From: Escherichia phage ECML-123-2
Sequence record: OL631480
Direction: 5' to 3' (one strand)
Length of the DNA: 64,000 bases
Shown: piece after piece, positions 1 to 62,576 of the stretch
Layout of the letters: every line of letters starts with the position of its first letter
How positions within the stretch are numbered: position 1 is the stretch's first letter
Translations under genes and position numbers: made by a program
Notes under the pieces: generated by a model
What the model saw: only the letters and a program-made list of their open reading frames with translations
Databases searched by the model: none
What the model was told of the DNA's origin: nothing

Positions 1-2178
1 TTAGGCCGCAAGGGCCTTCATAGTTTTAGCGATTTGAGAAACTTCATCATCACTTAAAGAGTTGCGATATCCGATGAAGTCGGAAACAATACGGAATTTC
101 TTGGTAAACTCAGCAACCATTTTATCACTGTTTTTTGAAGCATTATTTGATAATACATCAAAAAGATTAGTTACTGTCCAGATGTCATGACCGATGGTAT
201 CTTTTCCACCATTAAAATATACACCGCGCAATGAACTAACTATATTAGCGAGTCGTGTATATTCTTCAGAAACTTCATCTGTACTGAAGTACTTCATCAT
301 AAAATCTAGTTCAGGATACTTGATAATTTTATCAATATATCGTTGAGCTGAACTTGAATAACCTACGTACTTATCATAATCTACATCATCAAAAGCATCT
401 ACATATAAATCACGCAGAGTTTCAAAAATACATTGGCACTGACCGAGTTCTTTTACCTTTTTCTGCAAAAGCGGACGAATAACATAAAACTCATTAATGC
501 CAATAAGATTAGCCATACGAATCAAAATATTCATAGATGGATGACAAAGAGATGTAGTACCATCCATAGAGAAAATATCAGAACGATGCATATACGCTAC
601 ATACCCAGTAATTTCATCTGCTTCTGATGTGAGCGTAAATAATTCCTCTTTTTCCCAGCGCCCGTCTTTAATTTCAAACTTAAATGCTGTAGCAGCTTTA
701 GGACGAGGAGCTTTACTTTTAACTACCTTTGGAATATAGCTTTTAACTAAAGCTTCAATTTCTGACAAATAATGAATGTTAACTTCATCACTTTCAAACA
801 TCGCCATAATATCAGGAAGCAAATCAATCTGCGATTCTACTTCTGGATTAATAAACAGAAGGCGTTCGTTGTGATGAATATTCAAAGTGTTATTAAATTC
901 ACTATCATCTAACGCATGTGCTAATCCACGGACAATATTAACACGATTTTTAATATTATCAATAACGATATTAATTTTTGTTGCATTAATACCAAACAGA
1001 CGATAACTTGATGCAACGGCTGAAGTTTCATGACTTTGCTTAATGCGCTTCAGTCGAGGGTCAAGATTTACTTCATACACAACTCCTGCATTGCATAACT
1101 TACTATCAGGTTCAAACATGCTTTGCATCTTCTTATATGACAGATTTTTAGTCGTAAATTTGACTGAATTACTAATCATATAATCTCGAGCAGAATACCC
1201 CATCTTCATCAATTCACGATATGTATGACGGGGAGATGTGGATTCTTTAAATCGTTTTACATCTTCATTAAATGCTTTCTCACTGAGTTCTTTAACTCGT
1301 TCAATAATATTTTTACGAGTACGATCATCCAGTGAAAGAGCCTCGCGAGATGGAGCAATATCAAGTGAACCCATTGGAAACTTAATGTAATTCACTTCAT
1401 TGCGAATGCTTAGCCAGTTACGGTCTCTAATAACACCATCGATAGGATAAACAATACCGCCATAGATAGCATATAATCCACCACGATCAGGCCAGTATCT
1501 TTCTGGATTTACACCGTAATAGTCATCAAAATCCGGAAAATAATCAATTTCGCGGTCAAGACCATTAATGATAGCCAAATCTTTGAATGGTCGCATGATA
1601 TAAGAAACTTCATAAGCAAAGTTTCTAAAGTCTTTTTCTTCAACTGGAACTACGATTTCAATACCAGTTTTATCATCTGGACCCATTTCTTTTACGAATG
1701 TAGGTTTAATCTGTGGGCCATCACCATCCATGTAAGCTACATAACCACGAATTTCACCTTTATGATACGAAGTAATACTAAACGTATCAGTATAACTAAA
1801 CGGAGATTTAGAACCTAAACCAAATCCGCCAATAAAGTCATTAGATTCAGCCTTAGATGAACTGAAGTATGAATTATATAACCCAGGAGAATTATCATCA
1901 CCCTGAATATCAAAATCACTCATACCCGGACCAAAATCTCGACAAACAAATCGCGGATCTAATCGTCCTGGAACTTGTATGATAAATTTTTCAGGATTTC
2001 CATTAAGTGCATGGGCATCAATCATATTAGTAATTAATTCACGGACTACTGCACGAATCTTGTTTGTATACAAATCAGATGACAGAATTTTAAATACTTT
2101 AGGAGATGCTGTGATGCTAAATGCTTTTGATTTAGAACCATTGCCAAGAATTGTTTCTTTTTCAGTGGTGATAATCAT
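1..2178 (-). CDS. rIIA: rIIA protein (membrane-associated lysis-inhibition/exclusion protein), complete 725 aa, stop codon at window edge
   Basis: 725-aa ORF; length and sequence match recalled T4 rIIA; sits next to topoisomerase gene 39 as in T4. Confidence 0.93.
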
Positions 2179-2188
2179 AATTTCCTCA

Positions 2189-2392
2189 TTAATTCATATT
2201 ACGTTTAATAACTTCGGCAACTTCTAGTAGTTCATCTTTAGTTGCGGTATCGGATTGAATTTTATCTCTAATATCCTTAAAGCGGTTTTTAAATTCTTCG
2301 GCTTCTCCCATATCGAAAAAGCGTTGAATGATTCTATATTCTCGATGAACTGCTTTATCAAAAAGTTCTAAATTTACTTTATATGATTTCAT
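2189..2392 (-). CDS. small hypothetical protein at the rIIA.1 position
   Basis: 67-aa ORF with ATG start, SD gaggat upstream, early promoter just upstream. Confidence 0.6.
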
Positions 2393-2417
2393 TTCAATAT
2401 CCTCATTTGCCCAATTA

Positions 2418-2447
2418 ATTATACCACATCCTTGTGGTAAAGTAAAC
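2418..2447 (-). promoter_or_regulatory. T4-type early promoter (minus strand: GTTTAC, 18 bp, TATAAT)
   Basis: minus-strand reading GTTTACtttaccacaaggatgtggTATAAT, about 25 bp upstream of the rIIA.1 start. Confidence 0.5.
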
Positions 2448-4264
2448 TACTGGCTCATCCATTCTTTACGAAGGTCAGCATTATCTCCCATGAGCATTTC
2501 AAAAAGCTCTTTCCAGTTCTCAGGAAGTTTAACAACATCATATACTGGGTTTTGAATCATCTCACGATATTCAGATTTTTCCAAAGAGCCAAGTCCTTTA
2601 ATATAACGGATGCTATGTTTAGGTAGAGCATCTTTGGCACTCTCATATTCAGCGACTGTATAAAACCATTCTTGTTTTTTACCGACCTGAGCGATGATTA
2701 CAGGAGTTTTGACAAAGCGAATTCGTCCTTGCTCAAACAATTCTGGCCAATTACTAAAAAACCCGAGCAGAGAAGGATAAATGCTTCCTAGACCATCATG
2801 GTCAGCATCGGTCATAATAGCAATATTATGATAATTCAAGTTTTCAGCTTTTTCACCAAGAACTAATCCAGTGATTGCGCAAATATCAAACAGTTCTTTG
2901 TTTTTAAGCATGTCAGCATATGACATACCCCAACTGTTGAGAACTTTACCACGTAATGGATAACCACCGTGAAGTTCTTTATCACGAACATCAATAAGAT
3001 ATCCGATAGCCGAATCACCCTCAGTCAAGAAAAGAGTAGTGTCAGCATCTTTACCACAAAGATTCGCTTTGATATGTTTATGAACCTTAGCTTTAGAAGC
3101 CTTTTTAGCTGCTTTAGTTTCTGCTGCTTTTTCTGCCGCCAATTTACGAGCCAAAGCAGCTTCAATAATCGGCATTAGAATTGCTTCATTATTTAGAATA
3201 GCACGTGAAATCTTTTTAGCATCAAGCTGAATATGACTACGGATTTCACCAAATGGAGAAGTCAAACGCTCTTTAGTTTGAGAATCAAATCGCATGTTTT
3301 TCATATCACGAACAAACATAACGATAGTCAAACATTCTTTAACACGTGCTTTAGTTACATCAATTTTGAACTTACGTTTGATTTGTGGAATAAGGTCTTC
3401 ACAAATATCATCCATAACACAGTCAATGTGATGGCCACCATTCTTAGTATGAATGTTATTAACGTATGTTAATTGACGAAAACCATCCGGTGAACGACCA
3501 ACCGCAATAGAACAATTTTCTTGTTCTTGAACAATAGCATGCTCATCATATTGGCGTGCATATTTCTTAAAATTGCCCTGAACCTTTTTACCATTAAAGG
3601 TAAATTGAATATCAGGATAAACTACTGCGAGTGTCTGGAGACGGTCCAGTGTAATGTCAAGATAAACCTGAGACAGCTCATTAGTTTCAAATGACATAAA
3701 ATCAGGAATGAAAGTAACACGAGTTCCTTTCCATTTTCCAGGAATATCTTCCCATGATTTATTTTCCATGCCATTTGAACAACGAACTACAATATTATTT
3801 TGACCATCACCAGTTTCACCGACAAACATCACAGAAAAAATGTTTGTCAAACTAGAACCAACACCATTCATACCGCCAGTGACACGTTCTTTATCATCAC
3901 CAAAGTTACCACCTGCTTTTGGAATAGTCCATGCAGCAACTGGACCAGGAATTTCTTCACCGGTAGGTGTTTTAACCATCGCTTGTGGAATACCGCGACC
4001 GTTATCTTCAACTGTTACCTGATTATTTTTAATGGTAACATTAATTTTATTTGCGAATTTAAACTTAGTACGAATACCTTCATCTACTGAGTTATCGATA
4101 ATTTCATCAATAAGCTTAACAAGACCAGGTACATACTGAACACTTTCCCATTTACCAAACAGAAAGCGCTCATGCATTTCATTAGCAGAAGAGCCAATAT
4201 ACATGCCGCTACGCTTTTTGATATGTTCAATATCGCTCAGAATTTTAATTTCATTCTTAATCAT
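2447..4264 (-). CDS. 39: DNA topoisomerase II large subunit, genes 39 and 60 fused in one ORF
   Basis: ORF starts MIKNEIKILSDIEHIKKRSGMYIGS (GHKL ATPase, GyrB-like); about 605 aa is roughly T4 gp39 plus gp60; track start is GTG, first ATG at 4264. Confidence 0.92.
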   Translation of the reverse strand: MIKNEIKILSDIEHIKKRSGMYIGSSANEMHERFLFGKWESVQYVPGLVKLIDEIIDNSVDEGIRTKFKFANKINVTIKNNQVTVEDNGRGIPQAMVKTPTGEEIPGPVAAWTIPKAGGNFGDDKERVTGGMNGVGSSLTNIFSVMFVGETGDGQNNIVVRCSNGMENKSWEDIPGKWKGTRVTFIPDFMSFETNELSQVYLDITLDRLQTLAVVYPDIQFTFNGKKVQGNFKKYARQYDEHAIVQEQENCSIAVGRSPDGFRQLTYVNNIHTKNGGHHIDCVMDDICEDLIPQIKRKFKIDVTKARVKECLTIVMFVRDMKNMRFDSQTKERLTSPFGEIRSHIQLDAKKISRAILNNEAILMPIIEAALARKLAAEKAAETKAAKKASKAKVHKHIKANLCGKDADTTLFLTEGDSAIGYLIDVRDKELHGGYPLRGKVLNSWGMSYADMLKNKELFDICAITGLVLGEKAENLNYHNIAIMTDADHDGLGSIYPSLLGFFSNWPELFEQGRIRFVKTPVIIAQVGKKQEWFYTVAEYESAKDALPKHSIRYIKGLGSLEKSEYREMIQNPVYDVVKLPENWKELFEMLMGDNADLRKEWMSQ

Positions 4265-4291
4265 CACTTATCCTCGTTTGGTTTCGGGAAT

Positions 4292-4317
4292 ATTATACTC
4301 CGGTAATCATAAAGCTA
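4292..4317 (-). promoter_or_regulatory. MotA-dependent middle promoter candidate for gene 39
   Basis: minus-strand aGCTTTA (MotA-box-like), 12 bp, TATAAT; about 30 bp upstream of start. Confidence 0.45.
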
Positions 4318-4336
4318 AAGGCCCGAAGGCCTTTTA
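4314..4336 (-). terminator. stem-loop with UUCG tetraloop after upstream lipoprotein gene
   Basis: aaaggcccgaaggccttt palindrome directly 3' of the stop at 4334. Confidence 0.5.
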
Positions 4337-4603
4337 TTTAAAACGAATAGTTGAATCCTTAAAGAACAGCCCAGAACATACTGTTCCTTCTACTTTCTGC
4401 CCAGTAGGTCCAATAGCACGAAATCCAGTATGTTGGAAATCATTTTCAGAACAACCGAACCAGTTATATCCAGTGATTTCAATATTAGTAAAACCGCTTG
4501 AAGACAAAACTTTGGTTGCATTATCAGCATCAGTACATCCTACTAAAGACACTGCTAATACTAATGCTGCGATAGAACGATTAATATATTTCATAATTTT
4601 CAC
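4334..4603 (-). CDS. small predicted lipoprotein
   Basis: 89-aa ORF; N-terminus MKIMKYINRSIAALVLAVSLVGC looks like a signal peptide with lipobox. Confidence 0.6.
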   Translation of the reverse strand: MKIMKYINRSIAALVLAVSLVGCTDADNATKVLSSSGFTNIEITGYNWFGCSENDFQHTGFRAIGPTGQKVEGTVCSGLFFKDSTIRFK

Positions 4604-4824
4604 TTAAATTTAATGGCTTGAAGAAGACTAATAACTCTCAAGCGGCTTCTTTCATCTTTAACTGTAAAAGAAAGAGGGTCACCAGATTTCATAGTGATAG
4701 TGCATTCAAAAGCAAAACCTTCGGGAACTTCTTCGAAGAAGTCAAATTCTTCATCATAAATTAGAACATTACTCTGCATACTGTGAAGAATTTTTCCGTC
4801 ATTTCCAGATGCTGTACTAATCAT
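4600..4824 (-). CDS. hypothetical protein
   Basis: 74-aa ORF, start overlaps upstream stop (ATGA coupling). Confidence 0.5.
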   Translation of the reverse strand: MISTASGNDGKILHSMQSNVLIYDEEFDFFEEVPEGFAFECTITMKSGDPLSFTVKDERSRLRVISLLQAIKFK

Positions 4825-4973
4825 TGTGTAACGTTATTACCTTTCATATCTTCAACGATAAATTCGCTTGTAGATATTACAACATTAATAGAACCATTCC
4901 TATAAATAGCAGAAAATAGATATTTCTTTTCTTCACCTTCGCGAATGCGATATTTCTTACCGATTTTAAACAT
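4821..4973 (-). CDS. small hypothetical protein (about 50 aa), not in ORF track
   Basis: ORF MFKIGKKYRIREGEEKKYLFSAIYRNGSINVVISTSEFIVEDMKGNNVTQ; stop overlaps downstream ATG. Confidence 0.35.
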   Translation of the reverse strand: MFKIGKKYRIREGEEKKYLFSAIYRNGSINVVISTSEFIVEDMKGNNVTQ

Positions 4974-4975
4974 AA

Positions 4976-5152
4976 TTACCCTTTAAGTAAGTCGTAAAAT
5001 CCGCCATTCACATGCTTAGGGGCAGAGACTAACCGAATAGCAATCCGATGACAATCAGGACATACATCAGTATCTCTTTCAGAAATTTTCTTGATTTTTT
5101 CGTATTCTTTTGCGCAGTCTTTTGATTGACATTTATAATCATAAAGCGGCAT
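4976..5152 (-). CDS. small zinc-ribbon protein (58 aa), not in ORF track
   Basis: MPLYDYKCQSKDCAKEYEKIKKISERDTDVCPDCHRIAIR... with two CxxC pairs, hand-translated from minus strand. Confidence 0.5.
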   Translation of the reverse strand: MPLYDYKCQSKDCAKEYEKIKKISERDTDVCPDCHRIAIRLVSAPKHVNGGFYDLLKG

Positions 5153-5154
5153 AA

Positions 5155-5568
5155 TTATTCCTTAAAGTGAGCTTTCAACATCTGATACAAGGACCATGCC
5201 TGTTCATCATTTTCAATAGTAACTTTCATTACAGGGAATTTAGATTGATCAGTTATCGGTGCAGATTCTTCCTGCTCTTCAGCTGCCTGGTATGGATTTT
5301 CAACTTCATTAAAGAATTCAGCTTCATTCGATGAAAGCCAAATAAAATCTTCATCCAAAATATCTTTACCAGAAGATAGTACTAAATTTCCAGCAAATGA
5401 CATAATTTTAATAGGACGCCCAAGAGCATCCACATCTAAAATTTTAAAAGGATGCATACCTAAACGGCGTGCATAGATTCCGTTATCAGTATGGTCTTTA
5501 ATAAAATTTTCTTGAGCTTGTTTATTTTTAAATTGATACCATTTATTAACTTCAAATTTAATAGCCAT
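5155..5568 (-). CDS. hypothetical protein
   Basis: 137-aa ORF, acidic C-terminal half, tightly packed with neighbours. Confidence 0.55.
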
Positions 5569-5786
5569 TAATAAATTTCCTTCCAGTAAGTTGTGCCATC
5601 TTCAGTGATTTCACGAAATACACCGTAAATTGGTTGTTTATCCCCAACCTTTTCATACACATAAACCGAAGTCAAGTGAGTAAACTTAGCAGTGTGTTCC
5701 TTTTGAACTACTACCAAATCTGGATCGAATAATACATCTTCAAATTCATCATTAGTGCAATTCTGAACAATTTTACGTTTCATCAT
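5568..5786 (-). CDS. hypothetical protein
   Basis: 72-aa ORF starting MMKRKIV with upstream SD gaggaaat. Confidence 0.5.
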
Positions 5787-5839
5787 AATTTCCTCATTAA
5801 TTGAACATTGGAGCGATGCGTTTCAGAAGAGTATCAGCG

Positions 5840-5849
5840 NNNNNNNNNN
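5840..5849. other. assembly gap (run of 10 N)
   Basis: literal nnnnnnnnnn in the sequence. Confidence 0.97.
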
Positions 5850-6358
5850 TGATAAAAATCTTTATGTGTAAAGAATGGACTGATATAAGCAGTGTTTTCT
5901 CCTGGGTCAACAGGTCTAATTTGCTTATTATCACCTATTCCAATTATAGTACACCACGGCGGGATAGTTGAAAGCAGAATTTTAAATAGCTTTCTATCAT
6001 ACATTGACACTTCATCGCAGATTAATACTCTGCATTTAGCTAAATCTGGTACTTCCTTCTGCTCAAAGAGGACATTTTCTTCATATGTTACCGGGTTAAT
6101 TTTGAGAATACTGTGAATAGTACTCGCTTCTTTCCCTGATAGTTTTGAAAGAATCTTTTTAGCTGCATGAGTAGGAGCTGCTAAAATAATGCCAGTTTCG
6201 CCCGTAGATATTAAGGCTTCAATGATGAACTTAGTAAGAGTAGTCTTACCAGTACCAGCAGGTCCATTAATAGTTACATGATGTTTCTTTTCTTTAATAG
6301 CCCTCATAACGATGTTAAAGGCATTTTTCTGGCCTTCAGTCAAATCATCAAATGTCAT
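5850..6358 (-). CDS. dda: Dda DNA helicase, N-terminal fragment cut off by the assembly gap
   Basis: MTFDDLTEGQKNAFNIVM...GPAGTGKTT (Walker A) matches recalled T4 Dda N-terminus; reading frame runs into the N-run after ...THKDFY. Confidence 0.85.
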
Positions 6359-6666
6359 CGTAAATTCCCTGCAATTGGTATACTAACAATACGCCCAGTA
6401 TCTAAAATTCGCCGATATAATCTTTGTGTGTCTACATCAGGCTTAACATGTTTAACTTCTATTTTATTAAACCAAAACTTGCGTGGAGTCTCAACTAATC
6501 TCGGAATTCCCATACCTAAAGCTAGTCGATACTGCTCTTTAAGAGTGGTAAATACTTTATCAGCAATCTCCCTTTCAAAAAATACAGCAGGACGATGTTC
6601 ATCAAGTGGAACTGGCGCCGTAAATCCGTCTTTGTCTCGGTAAACTATCGCATATACATAAACCAT
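6355..6666 (-). CDS. hypothetical protein at the dda.1 position
   Basis: 103-aa ORF, start overlaps upstream gene stop. Confidence 0.55.
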   Translation of the reverse strand: MVYVYAIVYRDKDGFTAPVPLDEHRPAVFFEREIADKVFTTLKEQYRLALGMGIPRLVETPRKFWFNKIEVKHVKPDVDTQRLYRRILDTGRIVSIPIAGNLR

Positions 6667-6667
6667 A

Positions 6668-7414
6668 TTATCCTCGGATAAGTTTAAAAATTGAACAATT
6701 TAACGGGTATCCTCTTTTCAGTTTAAGTTTATCAATAAAAGACAAGTTTTGATACCGCTCTACACCTTGAATAATTTTATCACACATATCATATTGCATT
6801 TCTGCTTCTGACAACTTTTTCACAGTTTTCCAATCAGAGCCTTTAAGAAGAACGTTCAATTTAACAACTTCAGCGCCTTCTGCTATACGAGAACCATCAA
6901 TACGAGCTTTGAGTGCTACAATCGTTAGCTTAACGTCAGAGGTTTGTTTTGATTTAGAAAGCCGAGAAATGTGTTCAATTCGGTTTTCACGTTTTTTCTG
7001 TATAGCTTTAATTTGATTATAAGTCTTTTTGATTTTAGCCCATTTCTTTTCATCTAAATTTAGTTTATGAACTTTTTTCGCAGATGAACGACCAATTCGC
7101 AAAGCAAATAAATCACGCTTTTCAATCAGCTCTTCTAAAGTATAATCAGAACGAAATGTATTATACTTTTTCTTTACTGCAATAACATTCCCTTTAATGT
7201 ATCCAACGTTATTATCAAAACGTTCTAATGATAATTTCTCTCCTTCAATACGATTATCAAAAGGTTCTCCCGAGTAAGCACAAACTTTTTGATCTAAAAT
7301 GTTCTTAATGTAATTGAAGTCTAAGTTAAAATCTTTAGAACGTCTTTTAGCAGATGCCTGAGTATGCTCTAGACGACGTTTAATTTTACGAATTTGATTA
7401 TTAGACAGCTTCAT
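6668..7414 (-). CDS. hypothetical early protein; position and size fit T4 srd, identity not verified
   Basis: 248-aa basic ORF between dda.1 and modA. Confidence 0.5.
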   Translation of the reverse strand: MKLSNNQIRKIKRRLEHTQASAKRRSKDFNLDFNYIKNILDQKVCAYSGEPFDNRIEGEKLSLERFDNNVGYIKGNVIAVKKKYNTFRSDYTLEELIEKRDLFALRIGRSSAKKVHKLNLDEKKWAKIKKTYNQIKAIQKKRENRIEHISRLSKSKQTSDVKLTIVALKARIDGSRIAEGAEVVKLNVLLKGSDWKTVKKLSEAEMQYDMCDKIIQGVERYQNLSFIDKLKLKRGYPLNCSIFKLIRG

Positions 7415-7450
7415 ATTTTTCTCACATCTTACGGACGGTTAACTACTTAT

Positions 7451-7480
7451 ACTATAACATTTTTACCTTAACTTGTAAAC
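7451..7480 (-). promoter_or_regulatory. T4-type early promoter
   Basis: minus GTTTACaagttaaggtaaaaatgtTATAGT upstream of 6668..7414. Confidence 0.5.
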
Positions 7481-7537
7481 AACTTTATGTAAAAATGCTT
7501 TAAAACTTTCATGGTATAATGAATCTAAGTCCTTCCA

Positions 7538-8140
7538 TTATAGATTAAATCCTTCAAAATCAAGAGTATAGATAGTGTATGTTGAATACTTTTTGTACTC
7601 ATATCTATCTGCAATTCTAAATACACTTCCAGCTGGTATCATTACTTCTTGTTCATCTGAAACTAATTCCATATTACGATAACGATGGCTATCTGGAAAC
7701 TTAAAGTTTGGATTGTATTCTTTACAGCGTAGAGCTTTTATAGCATACTCCTGGAAATTGAATACCATAGGAGCTTTGAATTCAAAAATAACTTGTGTGT
7801 TATACTCTAAACCAGAAGCAAAATGCAGAGCTATATTTTTATCATATGAAGCTGATACTACTTTATCAAATGTAATAATATCAATTCCTTGATTTAATAC
7901 TTGCTTAGTCTCAGCTGGAACACCTCTCCAAAGAGGTTTATCGTTTGGAACCAAACGAGATTTGATTATTTCATTTAACCAAGTATGGTCATCTGGTTTG
8001 TTGGTAATACAATGAATTAAAAGTTCAATTTCAGATAAATTAAATCCTTCAGAAAGTAATTCTTCACGAATAGAAGCACGCACCGATGCATCCATTGATT
8101 TTATTTTAAAATCTTTTAGTTGCATTACTGAGTATTTCAT
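7538..8140 (-). CDS. modA: ADP-ribosyltransferase ModA
   Basis: 200-aa ORF at the T4 modA position with R...S...ExE-like motifs (LWRGVP, SASYD, EQEVMIPAG). Confidence 0.8.
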   Translation of the reverse strand: MKYSVMQLKDFKIKSMDASVRASIREELLSEGFNLSEIELLIHCITNKPDDHTWLNEIIKSRLVPNDKPLWRGVPAETKQVLNQGIDIITFDKVVSASYDKNIALHFASGLEYNTQVIFEFKAPMVFNFQEYAIKALRCKEYNPNFKFPDSHRYRNMELVSDEQEVMIPAGSVFRIADRYEYKKYSTYTIYTLDFEGFNL

Positions 8141-8757
8141 TCAACTACCTCAATATCATAAACTTTAAATGTTCCAAATGAATCGTGTAATTTTTCTTTT
8201 GAAATAGAAGTTATTCTATACTTTCCAATTGGAATCATCCATTCTTGTTCACGCACAATCATCATTAAGTTATCAGTACGCTCTGAATCTAATCCATCAG
8301 TATCTTCATACGTGTACTTAAACTCAGTATTAGGAGAAGAAAGTATAATATCGCTGATATGGTCAGAATAATTAAAAGCTTTATCAGTTTTTAAGCGAAA
8401 TATTATTTCAGTGAAATACACATAAGAAAAACCACATGCTATGTGCAAACTAGTAGTAAATGAATCTACCCTGTTCGTTGAAAACACTTCTCCGACTTGT
8501 AAATCTTTAATGAGTTCTTTTGTCGATTTTGATATACCACGATATAGCTGATAAGGTGATTTAGTTAAATGCTTTTTAATGATTTTATTCAACTGCCTAT
8601 GAAGAGCTTCATTCTTTTTAGCTTCCATACATTGCCAAAGAATTGACTGCTCAAAGTCAGTAAATTTTTCACAGACTTTTTTATACATATCATATTGAAA
8701 ATCAACGCTTTCAGCTTTTATAGATAACTGTTCAACATCTGCAAGATTAATAATCAT
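8137..8757 (-). CDS. modB: ADP-ribosyltransferase ModB
   Basis: 206-aa paralog directly upstream of modA (LYRGIS, STNRVD, EQEWMIPIG). Confidence 0.8.
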   Translation of the reverse strand: MIINLADVEQLSIKAESVDFQYDMYKKVCEKFTDFEQSILWQCMEAKKNEALHRQLNKIIKKHLTKSPYQLYRGISKSTKELIKDLQVGEVFSTNRVDSFTTSLHIACGFSYVYFTEIIFRLKTDKAFNYSDHISDIILSSPNTEFKYTYEDTDGLDSERTDNLMMIVREQEWMIPIGKYRITSISKEKLHDSFGTFKVYDIEVVE

Positions 8758-8783
8758 GATAGCCTCCGTATACTTCAGAAGCT

Positions 8784-8813
8784 ATCATATCATCGTTAGA
8801 AAGGAAAGTAAAC
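8784..8813 (-). promoter_or_regulatory. T4-type early promoter for modB
   Basis: minus GTTTACtttcctttctaacgatgaTATGAT. Confidence 0.5.
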
Positions 8814-8824
8814 AACTTTTTGAA

Positions 8825-9007
8825 TTATTTTGCCCAGGGAGCCCAAGGCGGAGGGTCAAGATGGTATGAAGCTAGTTCTTCTAGAAGAGCATCTGGGGCT
8901 TCAATTCCATAATTCTGTAATACTATACGGTACTCTTTCTTATAATCACTAGAATCATTCTGGTTATTCGTAGAATGATTATCTTCTAACATCTCAAATA
9001 AATCCAT
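8825..9007 (-). CDS. hypothetical protein
   Basis: 60-aa ORF. Confidence 0.45.
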   Translation of the reverse strand: MDLFEMLEDNHSTNNQNDSSDYKKEYRIVLQNYGIEAPDALLEELASYHLDPPPWAPWAK

Positions 9008-9015
9008 ATTAATTC

Positions 9016-9486
9016 CTAGCGATAAAAACCAAATTGACGATTAGCTTCAATAATCTTTCTTTCTTCTTCGGACATTCTCCAACGTAGTCCAACATCAAAA
9101 TGAGCCCAGACCATCTTAACAAATGCATTTATATCTTTAATATCTTCAATAATGAATGTTTTACTTTTAGAAGGTTGACTCACTAATTTAACTTTATCAT
9201 CTTCAAACAGGTCAAAAAGACCATATTCATGAGCTCTTTTATAGCCTTTAATAGTTAAAGCTTCAGAAGAAGAAAACGGTGAATCTGTATTCTGCAAAAT
9301 ATCTTCAGTATGCTTTATAATTAGAATAACATTTTCTGGATATTTTCTTTCTTTTATATCTTTAATTAAAAGATCCGGATTTTCTGCTAAAGGAATAATT
9401 AATGAGCATTTTTTATCAAGTGCATTTACTGATTTACCTTCTTTAGACATAAATTCTATTGAATAATGTTTTGCTACTTCAATCAT
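9016..9486 (-). CDS. hypothetical protein
   Basis: 156-aa ORF. Confidence 0.6.
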
Positions 9487-9643
9487 GTGATTTCCTTTTG
9501 CCTACTAATGGACCATCGGGAATTTTGTTTTCCTGGATATATTTCTCATTTTCTTCCATCATTTTACTGCCAATTTTAAGAAGCAAATCCAGTGCTTCAT
9601 TTGCTTTTGCTTTAGCCTCTTCTAACGTTATATCTTTGTTCAT
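9479..9643 (-). CDS. small hypothetical protein (54 aa), not in ORF track
   Basis: [25 protein letters not shown]...; start overlaps upstream stop, stop overlaps downstream start. Confidence 0.35.
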
Positions 9644-9843
9644 GATTTATCACCATAGATGTCTCTCATCAATTTAAGCGCTGAGCGTTCTAATTTCTTT
9701 TCTTTCTCAGCACTAATCATTGATTTCATCCATTCTTCCGATTCGTTCTGCATTTCTTTATTTGCTTGTTCAACCCAACCATCGTCAATATACATTGAGT
9801 TTGGTCTATTGAACCATTCAAGAATCTTCTTGGGAGCTTTCAT
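9640..9843 (-). CDS. hypothetical protein
   Basis: 67-aa ORF. Confidence 0.5.
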
Positions 9844-10315
9844 TTATTTTACCTAAAACAATAGTAGGAGCATCGTCAAATTTATGAATTTTTAGTAAAT
9901 TTGGATTTAACTTATTCCATAAAGAGGTAATAAAATATGATAGCGCACTTTCGTCCGTAATTATAAATTTATTTCCTTTATCTATTTTCCAATCATATAT
10001 TGAATCATATGAATAGAAGGATAACGGTTTATTATTATAATATGCTTCACTAACATCAATATAGTTAGATTTAGTAAATGCTTGAATTGCCATAAATGGA
10101 GAATTTTGTACAGTTTCAATAATTCCGATCTTTTTAAGTTTTATTTCAACATCTTCTGGAATTGGCATTGAAATAAAATCTTCTACTAGATACATGTTAT
10201 TGTCATATCTTTTATCAATCATTACTGCTACGGTAATTGGAACATCCTTGACAAACGCCATACTAATACTATTGATAGACATTTCAAACAAAATTGCTTC
10301 CATAATTTTCCTCAA
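9818..10315 (-). CDS. hypothetical protein
   Basis: 165-aa ORF. Confidence 0.6.
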
Positions 10316-10653
10316 TCACAAGATGTAGATGAACAACTAGAATCACAAGAACTTCCACATGAATCACCTGCCCATACGTGAACAGGAACATTTGTATCAT
10401 ATGAATCAGAACTAGACTGTGTTTTCTGTGCATTAGATGATGTAGTAGGTGTTGACCAGCGCCAAGGATTTTTATAATATTCTTGGGCTTCTTCATAAGT
10501 CATAGTAACTGCTTCTACTGTTCCATCTCCCATATAAACATACTCAACTACAGTTAAAGGAAGGTAGTCATTTGAAATAGGAACTACACCTTCTCCGGGA
10601 GTTGTAGAGAAAAAATCTGTAAAGAAACTTTTAAACCAATTAAAGATAAACAT
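10312..10653 (-). CDS. hypothetical protein with hydrophobic N-terminus and Cys/Ser-rich C-terminal tail
   Basis: 113-aa ORF ending ...[18 protein letters not shown]. Confidence 0.55.
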
Positions 10654-10859
10654 TACAAAAAGCCTTTCTTGAATTCGACTTGCTTCTCACCATAATCATA
10701 TCGAATTTCTGCATTAAATTCGACAGAACCATCTGCGTACATCATAAATGAATGCACAACAACTTCTGTAGACCATGGTTGTAGTTCATATTTCTTCATT
10801 ACGTGTCGTGAAATGATAATATCTAAATCTTCATTCGGTTTAATCCAACGATTTAACAT
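10653..10859 (-). CDS. hypothetical protein
   Basis: 68-aa ORF with upstream SD and early promoter. Confidence 0.5.
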   Translation of the reverse strand: MLNRWIKPNEDLDIIISRHVMKKYELQPWSTEVVVHSFMMYADGSVEFNAEIRYDYGEKQVEFKKGFL

Positions 10860-10885
10860 AGCGCTCTCCTCTATAAGATAATTCT

Positions 10886-10915
10886 ATTATACCATACTCA
10901 TTTTGGAAAGTAAAC
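10886..10915 (-). promoter_or_regulatory. T4-type early promoter
   Basis: minus GTTTACtttccaaaatgagtatggTATAAT. Confidence 0.5.
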
Positions 10916-10924
10916 CATTTAAAT

Positions 10925-10950
10925 GAAAAAAGGACTCCCGAAGGAGTCCT
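10925..10950 (-). terminator. rho-independent terminator after soc
   Basis: minus ggactccUUCGggagtcc followed by a T-run. Confidence 0.6.
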
Positions 10951-10957
10951 TGAATTA

Positions 10958-11203
10958 TTAACCACCAGTTACTTTCCACAAATCTTCGTTTGCAGCAATC
11001 CATTCAGTACGCTGATTTTCTTCATATACAGTAGTATATGCTGCTTTTTCTGAAGGGAACGTCTGGTAATGAGCACCAGAAATTTTGTGAACGTCAGAAT
11101 AAAGAGGGAAAGCTACTGAAATTTCCTTTCCTTCAATTTTCTTATTTCCATCTAATTTCTGCTCAAATGTTTTGATATTAACATAACCGCGAGTACTAGC
11201 CAT
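10958..11203 (-). CDS. soc: small outer capsid protein Soc
   Basis: MASTRGYVNIKTFEQKLDGNKKIEGKEISVAFPLYSDVHK... matches recalled T4 Soc. Confidence 0.93.
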   Translation of the reverse strand: MASTRGYVNIKTFEQKLDGNKKIEGKEISVAFPLYSDVHKISGAHYQTFPSEKAAYTTVYEENQRTEWIAANEDLWKVTGG

Positions 11204-11271
11204 GTAATTCTCCTTTTATTTAAATTACATGATTATTTATAATAAATTCTCGCGGCTTTTAAGACGAGCTG

Positions 11272-11790
11272 TTAATAACCTCGGTCTTGACGAGCGAAAT
11301 TTTCAGCATTTTTCAGATAATAAAGTTTAAAGATTTCTTCTGCTGTAAGACCAAGACCTTGAAACATGTTCAGAACAAAATGGAGAATATCAATCATTTC
11401 GAATTTGATTTCTAACTGGTCCTGTGGAGACAAATCAGTAATCAGAGTTTCACGACGTTCACCATGCTGCGACTTCCAAGGCTTCCATACAGCAGATGCA
11501 TCTTTTTCACCATTGCTCATACCACCAAGAGAAGTCAGAAGTTCGCGGAATTCATCATCAATATAATCTTTCTGATTACGCAGCCAATCAACAACTTCAC
11601 CTGCAGTAGCCAAATCATCAGGATGACGGTTATATTCAGGTTTATCTTTAGCTAAACGAATCTGCAGAGATTTCTGCATGTCAAGCATTACCTGCAGCGG
11701 GTCTTTTTCATCACCGAGAATATCCCAATATTCATTTTGAGCTTTATCAGCGCCTTCGATCAGTTGACTACATTCGTTAAAGTAAGCCAT
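11272..11790 (-). CDS. 56: dCTP pyrophosphatase gp56 (MazG-like)
   Basis: MAYFNECSQLIEGADKAQNEYWDILGDEKDPLQ...; first ATG at 11790 has SD aaggaaa; track start is TTG. Confidence 0.85.
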   Translation of the reverse strand: MAYFNECSQLIEGADKAQNEYWDILGDEKDPLQVMLDMQKSLQIRLAKDKPEYNRHPDDLATAGEVVDWLRNQKDYIDDEFRELLTSLGGMSNGEKDASAVWKPWKSQHGERRETLITDLSPQDQLEIKFEMIDILHFVLNMFQGLGLTAEEIFKLYYLKNAENFARQDRGY

Positions 11791-11850
11791 TATTTTTCCT
11801 TTCAATTCATTAATAAGTTAAATAATTATACCATTTGAATATATAAGCAA

Positions 11851-12639
<789 letters not shown>

Positions 12640-12740
12640 TCATTTATTGCAGCAAAAATGAATTATACAATTCTTCATCATATGTATTTGATAGTAATAC
12701 TAACACGTTTTGCGATAAATATTAATTTAAAGGAGGACAT

Positions 12741-12941
12741 ATGGTACAAAAATTAATGGCACTTGTTAATGCCATAAAAGGTAATAAAAAACGTATAGCT
12801 TTTACTATTTCTGCTATGATAGGAATTTTACTTTGGAATTTTGTTTTATCGCCAGTTGCTATTGCTCATGGCGTTAGTATTCCAGTAGTTACTCTTGATA
12901 CATTCGTAGATTTAGCATTTGCTTTGGTTGGGTTAATTTAA
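12741..12941 (+). CDS. small hydrophobic protein on the plus strand
   Basis: 66-aa ORF with textbook SD aaaggaggacatATG; two predicted TM segments; convergent with gene 61. Confidence 0.5.
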   Translation: MVQKLMALVNAIKGNKKRIAFTISAMIGILLWNFVLSPVAIAHGVSIPVVTLDTFVDLAFALVGLI

Positions 12942-13966
12942 ATCTTGGCATATTTAGATAGCCTCATTTTAGCCATTAACCCCTGGGCAATATTATTTTT
13001 CATATATTCCATAATTTGTTCAGGGGTTGCACCTTCCTTTCTAATCATATCATTGACATCTTTTGATTTCCAGGGAGATTTATCCCAAAACATAACCCTT
13101 TCTCCTGCATCAACTAATTTAGTCATTCGCTTAATAGTGTCAGGGTGACGAGGTTCATTATCTAAAACCCACACTCGTCTATCTTTAAATGGAACAACTT
13201 CTAGGTCTAATTGACCACCTGTAATAGCTATACCATTTTCAATAAAAAGTGAATCTATAGGTCCTTCTAGAACATATACATCACCATCTTTAACTCGTTC
13301 AACACCGTAAATTTTTGTTGCCTCAGGATAAGCTTTAATGGTGATATATTTTTGAGGAGCATCTTTCTTTAATGCACGTCCTTGAAAAGACTCAGCTTTT
13401 CCGTTAGCATTATAAATTGGAATAACAAGACGAGGCTCAGGTGTTTCCTTTTTATATGTTCCTGGAGCTATACTATTAACTAATTTAGGCCATTCAGTTG
13501 TAAACCAAAGATATTTCCATTTATCCTTTGGAATACAACGAGCTTTTACATATTTTATAATTGGATGGTCTTCCGCCAATTTATCTAATCTGATGCATGA
13601 CGGAAGAGATTTAATTATTTTCTTCTCAGGTTGTTTAGGAAGTTCTTTAGGTTTTTCTACTGGACGACTTTTACCTTTTTCTTTTCTTATTTCAAAGATA
13701 TACTCACGATATAAATCAGGTTCAAACTCCTTTAAATATATTCCGATTGGTGCATGGTAGTTACAGTTATAACAATGAATATTTCCTTCATTATTATCGC
13801 CATAATACCATCCACGGGCTTTATTTTGATCGGTTTTTGAATCTCCACAAACGGGACATCTAAACCGTAATTTAAAAGTTGAACTATTATTTACTTGTGC
13901 GAATTTAGGTAAATGAGCCAATGCACGGTATGCAAACTCATTATCAATCCAAGGTATTGATGACAT
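12938..13966 (-). CDS. 61: DNA primase gp61
   Basis: 342 aa with zinc-binding CPVCGDS...CYNC and primase core; same size as T4 gp61. Confidence 0.92.
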   Translation of the reverse strand: MSSIPWIDNEFAYRALAHLPKFAQVNNSSTFKLRFRCPVCGDSKTDQNKARGWYYGDNNEGNIHCYNCNYHAPIGIYLKEFEPDLYREYIFEIRKEKGKSRPVEKPKELPKQPEKKIIKSLPSCIRLDKLAEDHPIIKYVKARCIPKDKWKYLWFTTEWPKLVNSIAPGTYKKETPEPRLVIPIYNANGKAESFQGRALKKDAPQKYITIKAYPEATKIYGVERVKDGDVYVLEGPIDSLFIENGIAITGGQLDLEVVPFKDRRVWVLDNEPRHPDTIKRMTKLVDAGERVMFWDKSPWKSKDVNDMIRKEGATPEQIMEYMKNNIAQGLMAKMRLSKYAKI

Positions 13967-15614: not shown

Positions 15615-17042
15615 CTAAAATTTTAATTCATTTGCCAAAGCATCTAACTGAGCTCGAGTCGATTCGTTTCTTTGATAGCGATTCTGCTCAGCTTGTATCT
15701 GTTGTGAACCTGCTACCTCACTCACTTCAGTTGGAGTAGAATCTTGTTCAATTTCTACCCATTTCTGATTTCCTTTTTGAACACCCATCAAAAACTTATT
15801 CCATTTATTCTTATCACCATATCGTGATTTGATTTGCTTAATAAGTTGTTGTTCAGCAGCTGCTAACTCCTCGGTTTCAATGACCGCAAGCATAAAATCA
15901 GCTGTTGCTGGAAGACCGGCAGATTCTGCAATATCGCTCATGTTAACATCAGAAGAATCCCAAGCTTGTTTACCAACCTGTGCTGCAGTCCAAAGAACAG
16001 TTTCGGTTTCAACAGCAAGAGCACGTAATTCCTCTGCAATGGCTTTAACAGTTGTGTAACTATTTTCTGAGTAAACTCTAATGCGGCAAGATTTACAAAT
16101 ACCCAGATAGTCGACAATAATGATTGTTGGAACAAAATTCTTCTTGAGCTTTAATTCGTTTAAAAGCGATCGAAATGTATTAGCATCTGCTCCACCAGTA
16201 GGATACTGTTTAACTATTAAACGACCGAGAGTAGATTTCTCGCGCCATTTTTCCATTTTTCCTTTATACTCAGCGTAAGAAATATGCCCGTCATCAATGT
16301 CATCAAGAGAAACATCAAGCATATTAGCATCAATACGTTTAGCACAGACTTCTTCTGCCATTTCCATGGAGATATAAAGAACGTTATGACCAAGCTGTAA
16401 ATAATCCGCTGCTAATGAACAAAGTCCTAATGATTTACCAACGTTAACACCAGCCATTAAAACGTTCAGTGTTCCTGTCTCAGCTCCGCCTTTAGTAATT
16501 TTGTTTAGAATTCTGAGTTTAAATGGAACTTTACGAGCTTTATTCATATAAGATAGCCAGCGTGCTTCGTAGTCATCCATCCAATCATGACCAACGTAGC
16601 TATCAAATGAAATTGATAATGCTTGACGCATGATATCAGGAATAGCACCTACATCTGGCATTTTCTTATTTCGTTTTTCCGGAGGAAGCTCAGCATTAGT
16701 TTGAATTTCGATTATTTTAGACGTAGCATTAAACATCGCCCTTTGCTGAACATATTTTTCTGTTTCTTTTACTAACCAACTGTGGTCTTCTGGAGAATCG
16801 GCTAGTTTTGAAATAAGTGTTTTTACACCAGAATATTCTGTTTCAGTAAATGAACTATTTTCTAATGCAACATTTAACGCATTAATAGATGGAACGCTAT
16901 GATACTCATTAACATGAGATTTAATTAATTTGAACGTATTTTTAGCTGGACCACTTTCAAAATATTCTGAATCCATATATGGCCAAACTTTTGAAAAATA
17001 AGCTTGATCAAATATGAGATGAGAAAGAATAATTTCTACCAC
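15615..17042 (-). CDS. 41: replicative DNA helicase gp41 (DnaB family)
   Basis: 475 aa, Walker A GVNVGKS; same size as T4 gp41. Confidence 0.95.
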   Translation of the reverse strand: MVEIILSHLIFDQAYFSKVWPYMDSEYFESGPAKNTFKLIKSHVNEYHSVPSINALNVALENSSFTETEYSGVKTLISKLADSPEDHSWLVKETEKYVQQRAMFNATSKIIEIQTNAELPPEKRNKKMPDVGAIPDIMRQALSISFDSYVGHDWMDDYEARWLSYMNKARKVPFKLRILNKITKGGAETGTLNVLMAGVNVGKSLGLCSLAADYLQLGHNVLYISMEMAEEVCAKRIDANMLDVSLDDIDDGHISYAEYKGKMEKWREKSTLGRLIVKQYPTGGADANTFRSLLNELKLKKNFVPTIIIVDYLGICKSCRIRVYSENSYTTVKAIAEELRALAVETETVLWTAAQVGKQAWDSSDVNMSDIAESAGLPATADFMLAVIETEELAAAEQQLIKQIKSRYGDKNKWNKFLMGVQKGNQKWVEIEQDSTPTEVSEVAGSQQIQAEQNRYQRNESTRAQLDALANELKF

Positions 17043-17051
17043 ACTTACTCC

Positions 17052-17414
17052 TTAAAAGAATTTAAACTTTTTCTTTGACCTTTTATTAAATGCATCTTGT
17101 AGTTGCATTGTAATACATTTTTCTACATGAGGAGCTAACTCAGCTTTTCTTTCTTGGTCAAGAACAGCAAAGTCCATTACGACTTTTCCATCAACCCAAT
17201 CTAATTTTGTCACATACACAATGTGTGTAGAACCATCTTCTAGTTTAATGACAATCTCCTGGATAACATTTTCCATGGCAGATTTAATTATCTTAAGAGA
17301 TTCATTAAAAAGACGTTCTTTTCTTTCTTCTTCCCCCTCCGAAGAGGGGGATTCATCGATAATTTCTAGATCTAAGTCTAAATCATCTTTATTCATTAAA
17401 TTCTTCCATATCAC
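17052..17414 (-). CDS. 40: gp40 head vertex assembly chaperone (by position)
   Basis: 120-aa ORF between 41 and uvsX. Confidence 0.6.
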   Translation of the reverse strand: MIWKNLMNKDDLDLDLEIIDESPSSEGEEERKERLFNESLKIIKSAMENVIQEIVIKLEDGSTHIVYVTKLDWVDGKVVMDFAVLDQERKAELAPHVEKCITMQLQDAFNKRSKKKFKFF

Positions 17415-21030: not shown

Positions 21031-21279
21031 TCAAATGCAAGTAGTAATTACTCCAGTAGTGCTTATGCAGGTATTACCCATTTGCACACCTAAAGATCCA
21101 TTTGTATTCACATGAAGATTATCATCAATTTTAACTGATATTTTACCATTAGTGTGAATAACGGTGCTAGATTCAATCACAGGTTGAGTATCATTTTCAA
21201 CACTAACAAATGGAACTGCTGCTAATGCAACTAAACAAACTGCTAAGCATCCCATAACAATTTTCATTTCATTCTCCAA
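21031..21279 (-). CDS. small secreted/membrane hypothetical protein
   Basis: 82 aa with hydrophobic N-terminus; early promoter directly upstream. Confidence 0.55.
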   Translation of the reverse strand: MENEMKIVMGCLAVCLVALAAVPFVSVENDTQPVIESSTVIHTNGKISVKIDDNLHVNTNGSLGVQMGNTCISTTGVITTCI

Positions 21280-21304
21280 ATCCGTATCAGTAGTTGATAG
21301 TTGT

Positions 21305-21334
21305 ATAGTACCATAGAAGAACAGGGATGTAAAC
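21305..21334 (-). promoter_or_regulatory. T4-type early promoter (conserved family member)
   Basis: minus GTTTACatccctgttcttctatggTACTAT with conserved upstream ATTCCCTAAAAATTTTTTCACAAAACT. Confidence 0.5.
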
Positions 21335-21417
21335 AGTTTTGTGAAAAAATTTTTAGGGAATCCAAAGGGTCCAGAATCATCTCTTTTTCATAAGTATAGA
21401 TTTATATTACTTGTATG

Positions 21418-24226: not shown

Positions 24227-24448
24227 TTAAATTAGTACTATTTGTCGGTGAAAAATTGTCATTCCATCTGCATTAATTGACTTAACGACTGCAGTAAAGT
24301 GTTTTTGTTCTGGGTGAATTAATTTTTGAAATTCTACCTGAAATTTTAGTTGAAGGTTTTCTGGTAAATCGAAAAGTGTTTCTGTTGCAGAAAGATTATA
24401 TTTTTCTTTAAGAGACGCCATGTATTCTTGCGGAGTTATAGCAGTCAT
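24227..24448 (-). CDS. hypothetical protein (73 aa from internal ATG)
   Basis: ORF between regA and 43; ATG one nt after the regA stop. Confidence 0.4.
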   Translation of the reverse strand: MTAITPQEYMASLKEKYNLSATETLFDLPENLQLKFQVEFQKLIHPEQKHFTAVVKSINADGMTIFHRQIVLI

Positions 24449-24449
24449 A

Positions 24450-24818
24450 TTAATTACCAATCGTATATTTAGGAACGAGTTTCCATTCATGTTTTTGTTT
24501 AAAAGAAATAACTCGGAAATTATTAGTTAAATCTTTCATAAAAGTTCTTTGACCAGGAACGATTTCAATCAGTCCCCAATCTTCTAACAGCCATGCAATC
24601 GAATCACGACGAACTTCATCTTCTTCTGTCATTTCAACTTGGCAACCATCCATACGAAGCATTTCTTTAAAATGAACGATATAGTATAGTCCTTTTTTCT
24701 GAAGAATATGACAGGACTGATACAGAACTTTATCTTTATTATTAGCAATTCCCATACGAGTCAAAGTTTCTTTTACTTTCAGAAAATCTTCAGGTTTTTT
24801 AAGAGTAATTTCAATCAT
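24450..24818 (-). CDS. regA: RegA translational repressor
   Basis: 122 aa MIEITLKKPEDFLKVKETLTRMGIANNKDKVLYQSCHILQKKGLYYIVHFKEM... matches recalled T4 RegA. Confidence 0.92.
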   Translation of the reverse strand: MIEITLKKPEDFLKVKETLTRMGIANNKDKVLYQSCHILQKKGLYYIVHFKEMLRMDGCQVEMTEEDEVRRDSIAWLLEDWGLIEIVPGQRTFMKDLTNNFRVISFKQKHEWKLVPKYTIGN

Positions 24819-35548: not shown

Positions 35549-35578
35549 ATCAATTCCTCAAAGGCAATTCATATGTTA

Positions 35579-35608
35579 ATAATACCACAGTTTGAGCTCG
35601 TTGTAAAC
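35579..35608 (-). promoter_or_regulatory. T4-type early promoter (conserved family member)
   Basis: minus GTTTACaacgagctcaaactgtggTATTAT with conserved upstream ATTCCCTAAAATAATTTTCACAAAGTT. Confidence 0.5.
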
Positions 35609-35706
35609 AACTTTGTGAAAATTATTTTAGGGAATGATAAGAAGGGAACGATAGCTTAGAATGGTAATATACAGAATGTGAGAAAGAAGGACCCAGAGGG
35701 CCCGTC

Positions 35707-46503: not shown

Positions 46504-46531
46504 TTTCTGTTCCTCCGTAGTTGATAGTTGT

Positions 46532-46561
46532 ATAGTACCACAGAGGAACAGTCTTGTAAAC
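46532..46561 (-). promoter_or_regulatory. T4-type early promoter
   Basis: minus GTTTACaagactgttcctctgtggTACTAT. Confidence 0.5.
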
Positions 46562-46563
46562 CA

Positions 46564-46967: not shown

Positions 46968-47936
46968 TTATTTCAGAAGAGTAACCTCAGCAATTTCTTC
47001 CCAACCGTTTTTGTCGGTCATAATAAAGTCAGCAAGATAAAGAGCAGTACGCAGTGAAACATTGCGTAAACGATTAACATTAACTTTCATCCATGATAAT
47101 GCTTTATAAGTTTCTTCATCAGAAAGACCGCGCTTTTGCATCATGTCAGTTGAAAGAATAACATCTTCAACCCTGACCATAATTTCTTCATTAGTGTGAA
47201 CACCCAAATCCAAATAAACCGAGCGGGACACTAATGCTTGTAAATGTGGAGCAAGTTTAGTACCACGGTCTAATTCGCGGTCAATGTCAACGTTTGTGAT
47301 AAAAACAATCGTTCCTTTAAATTCAAACTCACGCTCAATGCCTTTTTCTTCTAAGTAAGAAGACGCAGTGCTCCAGCAGACTTTACGGGTCTCTCCGGTG
47401 TCCAGAGCAGCTTTCAGAAGATTAAGAATGTCCATATCAGAGAAAACATCCACATCATCAATCAAAAGGACAGAATTCTCTTCACGATTATTCCAAAGCT
47501 GTTCATAAAGACCAATACCAGAGATTTTACCATTAATGCTTTTATATTCAATGTATCCAATATCATTTGCTTTATTTAAAGCTTTATCTAAAGAATACGT
47601 TTTACCAATGCCTGCCGCACCAGAGATAATTAATGAACGAATGTTTCCGTTAATAATACCATTCGTCATCATTCCCATAACATTAAATCTTTTATTAATG
47701 CGGGTTTTCATATCTTCATACGATTCTTTAACTTCTTCAACTTTTACACCATCATATGAAATGTCTGATTTGTAAACCCAAACACCGCGACGTTTACCGT
47801 CAATTTCAACAAAAACTTTACCATCTCCTTGTGCATCTACTGGAGCATTATCTGGGAACCATTCGCCTAAGAGCTCAAAAGTTCCAGAGATTTCTTTACC
47901 GAAGTAGATACCCTTATTGATAGTTACAGTTTTCAT
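46968..47936 (-). CDS. P-loop NTPase (AAA-like), nrdC.10 position
   Basis: 322 aa from ATG at 47936; Walker A GAAGIGKT, Walker B VLLIDDVD; own early promoter. Confidence 0.65.
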   Translation of the reverse strand: MKTVTINKGIYFGKEISGTFELLGEWFPDNAPVDAQGDGKVFVEIDGKRRGVWVYKSDISYDGVKVEEVKESYEDMKTRINKRFNVMGMMTNGIINGNIRSLIISGAAGIGKTYSLDKALNKANDIGYIEYKSINGKISGIGLYEQLWNNREENSVLLIDDVDVFSDMDILNLLKAALDTGETRKVCWSTASSYLEEKGIEREFEFKGTIVFITNVDIDRELDRGTKLAPHLQALVSRSVYLDLGVHTNEEIMVRVEDVILSTDMMQKRGLSDEETYKALSWMKVNVNRLRNVSLRTALYLADFIMTDKNGWEEIAEVTLLK

Positions 47937-47970
47937 TTTATTCTCCAAATCCGTATCAGTTGATAGTTGT

Positions 47971-48000
47971 ATAGTACCATAAAGCTTTATGCTTGTAAAC
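47971..48000 (-). promoter_or_regulatory. T4-type early promoter (conserved family member)
   Basis: minus GTTTACaagcataaagctttatggTACTAT, inside the longer track ORF. Confidence 0.5.
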
Positions 48001-48028
48001 AATTTTGTGAAAAAATTTTTGAAATAAA

Positions 48029-62107: not shown

Positions 62108-62383
62108 TTATTTCATATTATTGAAATATTCTTCTGCGATTTCATCGTTATCATGGTAAACTTTAGAAGACAGTTTAACATAACCTTCAGCAGTGAACAT
62201 GTTAATCACAACCTTTACAGTATACCACTGACCATCTTCATTACCCATTACTGCATAGGTTTCAAACATCGGATGGTCAGGACCGATAACTTTAATATCA
62301 TTCACTGTACGACCGAAATCTTCTGAAACACATTTCATAAAGAAGTTGAACAGTTCGCCGTAATTATCCATTTCATTCTCCAA
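62108..62383 (-). CDS. hypothetical protein
   Basis: 91-aa ORF with SD ggagaatga and early promoter. Confidence 0.6.
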   Translation of the reverse strand: MENEMDNYGELFNFFMKCVSEDFGRTVNDIKVIGPDHPMFETYAVMGNEDGQWYTVKVVINMFTAEGYVKLSSKVYHDNDEIAEEYFNNMK

Positions 62384-62413
62384 GTTGTTTTTGTATCAGT
62401 AGTTGATAGTTGT

Positions 62414-62443
62414 ATAGTACCATGGAAGAACAGGGATGTAAAC
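62414..62443 (-). promoter_or_regulatory. T4-type early promoter (conserved family member)
   Basis: minus GTTTACatccctgttcttccatggTACTAT with the same upstream element as 21305..21334. Confidence 0.5.
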
Positions 62444-62576
62444 AGTTTTGTGAAAAAATTTTTTAAAAAGTTTTAGGGAATTCTAGGGCAGGGAGGGGCA
62501 ATTAAAAGATAGGATAATATATTATAAAGGGTAGAAACTAAATGATGTCTAGAGAGGCCCGGAAAGGCCTAGATAC

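Follow-up and report, generated by a model that had tools for sequence, protein, structure and literature searches.

The 64,000-base window analyzed here opens the genome of a T-even phage (Tequatrovirus), Escherichia phage ECML-123-2 (OL631480), whose sequence has been rotated so that rIIA comes first; every gene in the part of the window discussed below lies on the minus strand. Scanning the whole window for non-ACGT characters returned a single run of 10 N at 5840–5849, the only ambiguous stretch in the 64 kb. The run separates a truncated dda gene on its right from 53 bases of non-dda sequence on its left (5787–5839, minus strand), which comprise the leader and ribosome-binding site of cef at the end of the left contig and are identical to positions 5788–5837 of phage U115. 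The two flanks are not adjacent in closed relatives, and we accordingly annotate 5840–5849 as a strandless scaffold or assembly gap.

To the right of the run, the window encodes the 5′ part of dda, the gene for an SF1B DNA helicase, beginning with an ATG at 6358 and ending with codon 169 at 5850, directly against the N run (5850–6358, minus strand). The fragment shares 98% identity with residues 1–169 of T4 Dda and carries Walker A (GPAGTGKT, residues 32–39), Walker B (DE, 115–116) and motif III (GDNKQ, 142–146), the hallmarks of the N-terminal RecA-like domain 1A of the T4 protein. Its only Pfam matches are AAA_19 (E=4.5e-24) and AAA_30 (E=5.8e-23), both families of the N-terminal P-loop domain. 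The C-terminal half of T4 Dda, with domain 2A, the SH3-like domain 2B (PF18343) and UvrD_C_2, is missing from the assembly, in which the reading frame runs into the N after codon 169; this absence describes the assembly and need not extend to the phage itself. The full-length ortholog of U115 adds SH3_14 (260–389) and UvrD_C_2 (392–434) and matches PDB 3UPU across all 439 residues. The upstream neighbor of dda, dda.1, is intact at 6355–6666 (minus strand; 99% identical to T6 Dda.1 and 96% to T4 Dda.1), and the downstream neighbors, which in relatives are dexA.2 or an RB14ORF015-like ORF, would fall within the gap.

These observations agree with part of what a first-pass annotation of the region had proposed from the sequence. 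It described a dda frame that reads cleanly to ...FFTHKDFY before meeting 10 N, which is what we find on the minus strand from 6358 to 5850 over 169 codons, and it was right that the gap truncates dda, of which codons 1–169 of 439 remain. It also placed the start of a different small gene beyond the gap, and the non-dda sequence at 5787–5839 is indeed the leader of one. The interval it delimited, 5786–6358, is accurate, its ends being the first base of the start codon of cef and the start codon of dda. The estimate of about 265 missing dda codons is corrected to 270 (169 of 439 residues align to T4 Dda).

To the left of the gap lies a series of small ORFs that all have a named T4 or T6 ortholog. 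The gene for Cef, a modifier of suppressor tRNAs, is complete at 5568–5786 (minus strand; 72 aa, 97% identical to T4 Cef; Pfam PF24050 T4_Cef, E=3.2e-35), and its own promoter cassette upstream is lost to the gap, at the point where U115 continues into an early-promoter repeat of ~105 nt. It is followed by goF, which encodes a modulator of mRNA metabolism and is likewise intact (5155–5568, minus strand; 137 aa, 75% identical to the 141-aa T4 GoF and 80% to T6 GoF); a GoF protein identical to that of the window occurs on many closed contigs. Further along are gene 39.2, encoding a zinc-ribbon protein (4976–5152, minus strand; 58 aa, 100% identical to T6 39.2 and 91% to T4 39.2, with a Pfam Zn_ribbon_8 match), an RB69ORF005c-like gene (4600–4973, minus strand) and gene 39.1 (4334–4603, minus strand; 89 aa, 99% identical to T6 39.1 and 100% over 62 aa to T4 39.1). 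These last three show 91–100% identity to their T6 or T4 counterparts. The suggestion of a size mismatch between T4 genes and the small ORFs at 4334–5786 is therefore wrong, since 39.1, the ORF005c-like gene, 39.2, goF and cef are each 75–100% identical to a T4 or T6 ortholog. The first-pass annotation had also listed dexA, motB, cef and goF as hidden by the gap; synteny supports this for dexA and motB, and cef and goF are present at the coordinates given above. Its remark that the region may differ from T4 holds only in known ways, which for the left flank are the T6/RB-type fused gp39 and extra ORF005c-like gene.

The RB69ORF005c-like gene is split into ORFs of 50 and 74 aa, which match residues 1–49 and 50–123 of T6 ORF005c; in T6, U115 and Pinarejo the gene is a single ORF of 123 aa. 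The split results from a 2-nt TG insertion at 4825–4826 that is private to the window (CATTGTGTAAC vs CATTGTAAC) and was seen in 0 of 25 relatives, and an exact look-up of the 74-aa frameshift product returned no record. The insertion lies ~1 kb from the gap and points either to an error in sequencing or to a gene that recently became a pseudogene. Beyond 39.1, the large subunit of the topoisomerase, gp39, is encoded at 2447–4264 in the fused 605-aa form found in T6 and is not divided into genes 39 and 60 as in T4; the window accordingly has neither mobA nor a translational bypass site here.

To learn what separates the flanks in intact genomes we compared 26 closed relatives, consisting of five GenBank phages (T4, T6, U115, Pinarejo and A6-6) and 21 ENA, NCBI or Logan contigs chosen for encoding GoF, Srd or gp39 identical to that of the window. 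The anchors at the gap edges were 3,688–4,677 bp apart in all 26, with a median of about 4,023 bp and clusters at ~3.79 kb, 4.02 kb and 4.24 kb; on U115 the edges fall at 5837 and 9864, with 4,026 bp between them. Every one of the 26 relatives carries an intact 439-aa dda, dexA.2, dexA, motB.2, a second motB-family gene and motB; dexA.1 lacks a gene call in one contig and is shortened in another. Most close relatives have an additional ORF of 86 aa beside dda and a motB paralog where T4 has motB.1; where gene tables were read for relatives other than T4, the paralog encodes 142–182 aa. The 86-aa ORF is optional, as is an 89-aa ORF between motB and cef, which in A6-6 is accompanied by a 139-aa ORF. 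On one Logan contig, SRR30543803_2483 (L020), which contains no N, the dda gene call at 8057–9375 is only 305 aa long and lacks the N-terminal part, which is probably a frameshift in that assembly.

Larger searches gave the same picture. Among 705 phage records with a match, none brings the flanks closer together than 2.1 kb; in 475 phage records they are joined over at most 6.5 kb, and the top 60 all carry 3.8–5.2 kb more than the window does. No hit came from a pattern search of IMG/VR, JGI metagenomes and GTDB genomes for the flanks at a distance of 0–30 nt. No phage record exceeds 98.4% identity over window positions 1000–13000, and the two sides of the gap have different nearest relatives: U115 comes closest on the left, with 99.3–99.4% identity and the same coordinates up to the gap, while the right flank is 97.2% identical to U115 and closest, at 98.4–98.8%, to other contigs. 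We also looked for the missing cef–dda stretch elsewhere in the window, where only the promoter repeat described below matched, and we therefore rejected the idea that the piece had been misplaced. A generally poor assembly with homopolymer frameshifts was rejected as well, as the alignment of the window to U115 is clean, with only 34 indels of a length not divisible by three over 54.6 kb, most of them between genes or in divergent sequence. Because the rest of the window aligns so cleanly to U115, the gap is an isolated defect.

The two edges of the gap differ in character. As judged from the relatives, the left contig end stops ~10 nt short of a dispersed early-promoter repeat, and the first ~110 nt of the missing piece consist of this cassette. 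The window itself contains three full copies of ~105 nt (62358–62462, 21256–21353 and 47925–48018) and two partial copies (46513–46563 and 35566–35621), all on the minus strand. Read along that strand, the cassette has an A/T-rich part and then the promoter TTTACA-17-TACTAT, after which come a conserved leader, the Shine-Dalgarno sequence and the ATG; one copy has this promoter, with a preceding TG, at 62414–62442. PeSL cassettes of T4-type phages were first described by Arbiol et al. 2010 (PMC2839356), and the consensus given for the PST/T4 pair is TTTACW-N17-TAYWAT (PMC4122927, Comeau et al. 2014). The window copies combine a promoter of this consensus, the A/T-rich upstream part, the Shine-Dalgarno sequence and the start codon in a repeated unit, and judged by sequence the dispersed repeat fits a PeSL-type early-promoter cassette. 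The bases just past the left break are also polymorphic among relatives, with a CA indel and, 15 nt further, an extra cassette with the 89-aa ORF in four of them. Contigs commonly end at the edge of dispersed, polymorphic repeats, and we infer that the left break was caused by this one.

The repeat past the left contig end, as seen in relatives, shares the layout of PeSL cassettes and sits where cassettes differ between relatives. It departs from them in its promoter: in most relatives examined, the cef-upstream copy has its −35 box replaced by a perfect 13-bp inverted repeat, ATCAGTAGTTGAT-N16-ATCAACTACTGAT, formed by an inverted copy of the leader, and the corresponding copy in our phage would lie in the gap, outside the assembled window. 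On L001 (U115) the inverted repeat occupies 3884–3925 of that locus, immediately within the sequence that the window lacks, and its hairpin has a folding energy of −10.9 kcal/mol (z=−5.3). No site came out of a strict sigma-70 scan upstream of cef in U115, because the −35 box of this copy is degenerate, having been replaced by the inverted repeat. Downstream of the hairpin lies a short leader ORF of 8–11 codons.

The right break, in contrast to what a repeat or a boundary of high diversity would predict, falls midway through dda, in a stretch over which relatives are colinear and show a flat diversity of 1–5% on both sides. The 400 nt past the break are single copy in relatives and the first 90 nt are nearly invariant among them, so that we rejected both of these causes. 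The sequence of relatives thus gives no explanation for a break in conserved, single-copy dda.

We consider it likely that the run is a plain assembly gap hiding an ordinary cef–dda interval. The 10 N would then mark the join of two contigs in a draft Tequatrovirus genome, a placeholder rather than a measured length, and 10 N is a common minimum gap in short-read and paired-end scaffolders. The phage most likely carries an interval of ~3.7–4.7 kb, most probably ~3.8 or 4.0 kb, which in transcription order on the minus strand would comprise dda codons 170–439, optionally an 86-aa RB14ORF015-like ORF, dexA.2, dexA.1, dexA, motB.2, a motB paralog (or motB.1), motB, and an early-promoter cassette driving cef and goF. 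That this phage has the same interval content as its relatives is what we infer from synteny. Three points speak against a plain gap: no repeat or hypervariable boundary accounts for the right break, the failure of ~4 kb of a high-copy phage genome to assemble is surprising, and a join made by a paired-end scaffolder would have had to span 4 kb, which is difficult with short inserts.

Two other readings compete with this one. The sequenced stock, or part of it, might carry a real deletion of ~4 kb from dda codon 170 to the cef promoter that removes the rest of dda, dexA and motB; if deleted and intact genomes coexisted, the assembly graph would fork at either end of the deletion, and read pairs spanning it could lead a scaffolder to a minimal 10-N join. 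Such a deletion would account for the contig break inside conserved, single-copy dda and for the very short N run, and it would be viable because the interval lies within Delta12, a region dispensable in T4 that extends from gene 69 to gene 39 (map 16,280–3,778), and motB is non-essential (PMC6070864). The trinucleotide CAC, found just inside both break points in relatives, is a possible microhomology, although a match of 3 nt is expected by chance. We nevertheless regard this deletion as improbable: a clean one would have assembled straight through without N, none like it occurs in the 705 related phage records or the 26 closed relatives, and no contig with the flanks 0–30 nt apart turned up in IMG/VR, JGI metagenomes or GTDB genomes. 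The viable T4 deletions of the Delta12 or del(39-56) type affect the same dispensable region and show that its loss can be tolerated (PMC6070864), but they are characterized laboratory deletions with sequenced novel junctions, and the window has an N run in that place and no junction sequence. If the deletion were nonetheless real, the phage would lack functional Dda helicase, DexA exonuclease and MotB, a natural case, of modest weight, of losing what T4 is already known to do without.

The gap could alternatively conceal content that departs from that of relatives, such as a mobile element or novel cassette in or beside dda or another set of PeSL-flanked ORFs, with unusual or repeated sequence causing the right-hand break that the relatives' sequence leaves unexplained. 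The interval is modular in relatives, with or without the 86-aa ORF, with a motB paralog of varying length and, in A6-6 and a few contigs, with the additional ORFs between motB and cef, and the change of nearest relative from U115 on the left to other contigs on the right also speaks for this reading. We find this reading very unlikely, however, as variation in the 26 relatives is confined to known small ORFs with a length change of less than 1 kb and dda is uninterrupted in all of them. Considered together as natural states of the phage or of a subpopulation, a ~4-kb deletion from mid-dda to the cef promoter and a new cassette or mobile element in dda strike us as improbable, and none of the sequenced Tequatrovirus genomes examined shows either state. 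The 10-N run is most likely an ordinary assembly gap that cuts dda and conceals ~4 kb of early genes that are well known and dispensable. No new biological feature is involved, and the locus is a standard T6-type cef–dda region.

Set against known systems, the locus corresponds most closely to the T6-type cef–dda interval (U115, MZ753803, 5838–9863; T6, MH550421; Pinarejo, PP925831), with which it shares flanking genes, order, strand and sequence; it differs in having 10 N in place of the 3.8–4.0 kb between the anchors, and in its private 2-nt insertion in the ORF005c-like gene. Compared with T4 genes 39 to dda (NC_000866, 3778–10729), cef, goF, 39.2, 39.1, dda, dda.1 and srd are orthologous at 75–100% amino-acid identity, whereas in T4 the topoisomerase gene is split into 39 and 60, mobA is present and the ORF005c-like gene is missing. 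T4 itself differs from most close relatives in having motB.1 and no motB paralog, and its gap-equivalent interval is 3,688 bp.

The importance of the gap is limited to annotation quality. The dda gene should be flagged as incomplete at the gap and not as a pseudogene, dexA, motB and their neighbors should not be scored as absent from the phage, and cef and goF should be annotated as present. Elsewhere in the window, two further differences from U115 were noted: ~540 bp of U115 (16745–17286, in the region of U115_031, a hypothetical protein) are absent from the window around 12709–12716, and megablast found nothing in U115 to match ~215 bp of the window (24234–24450). Both belong to the ordinary variation in cassettes.
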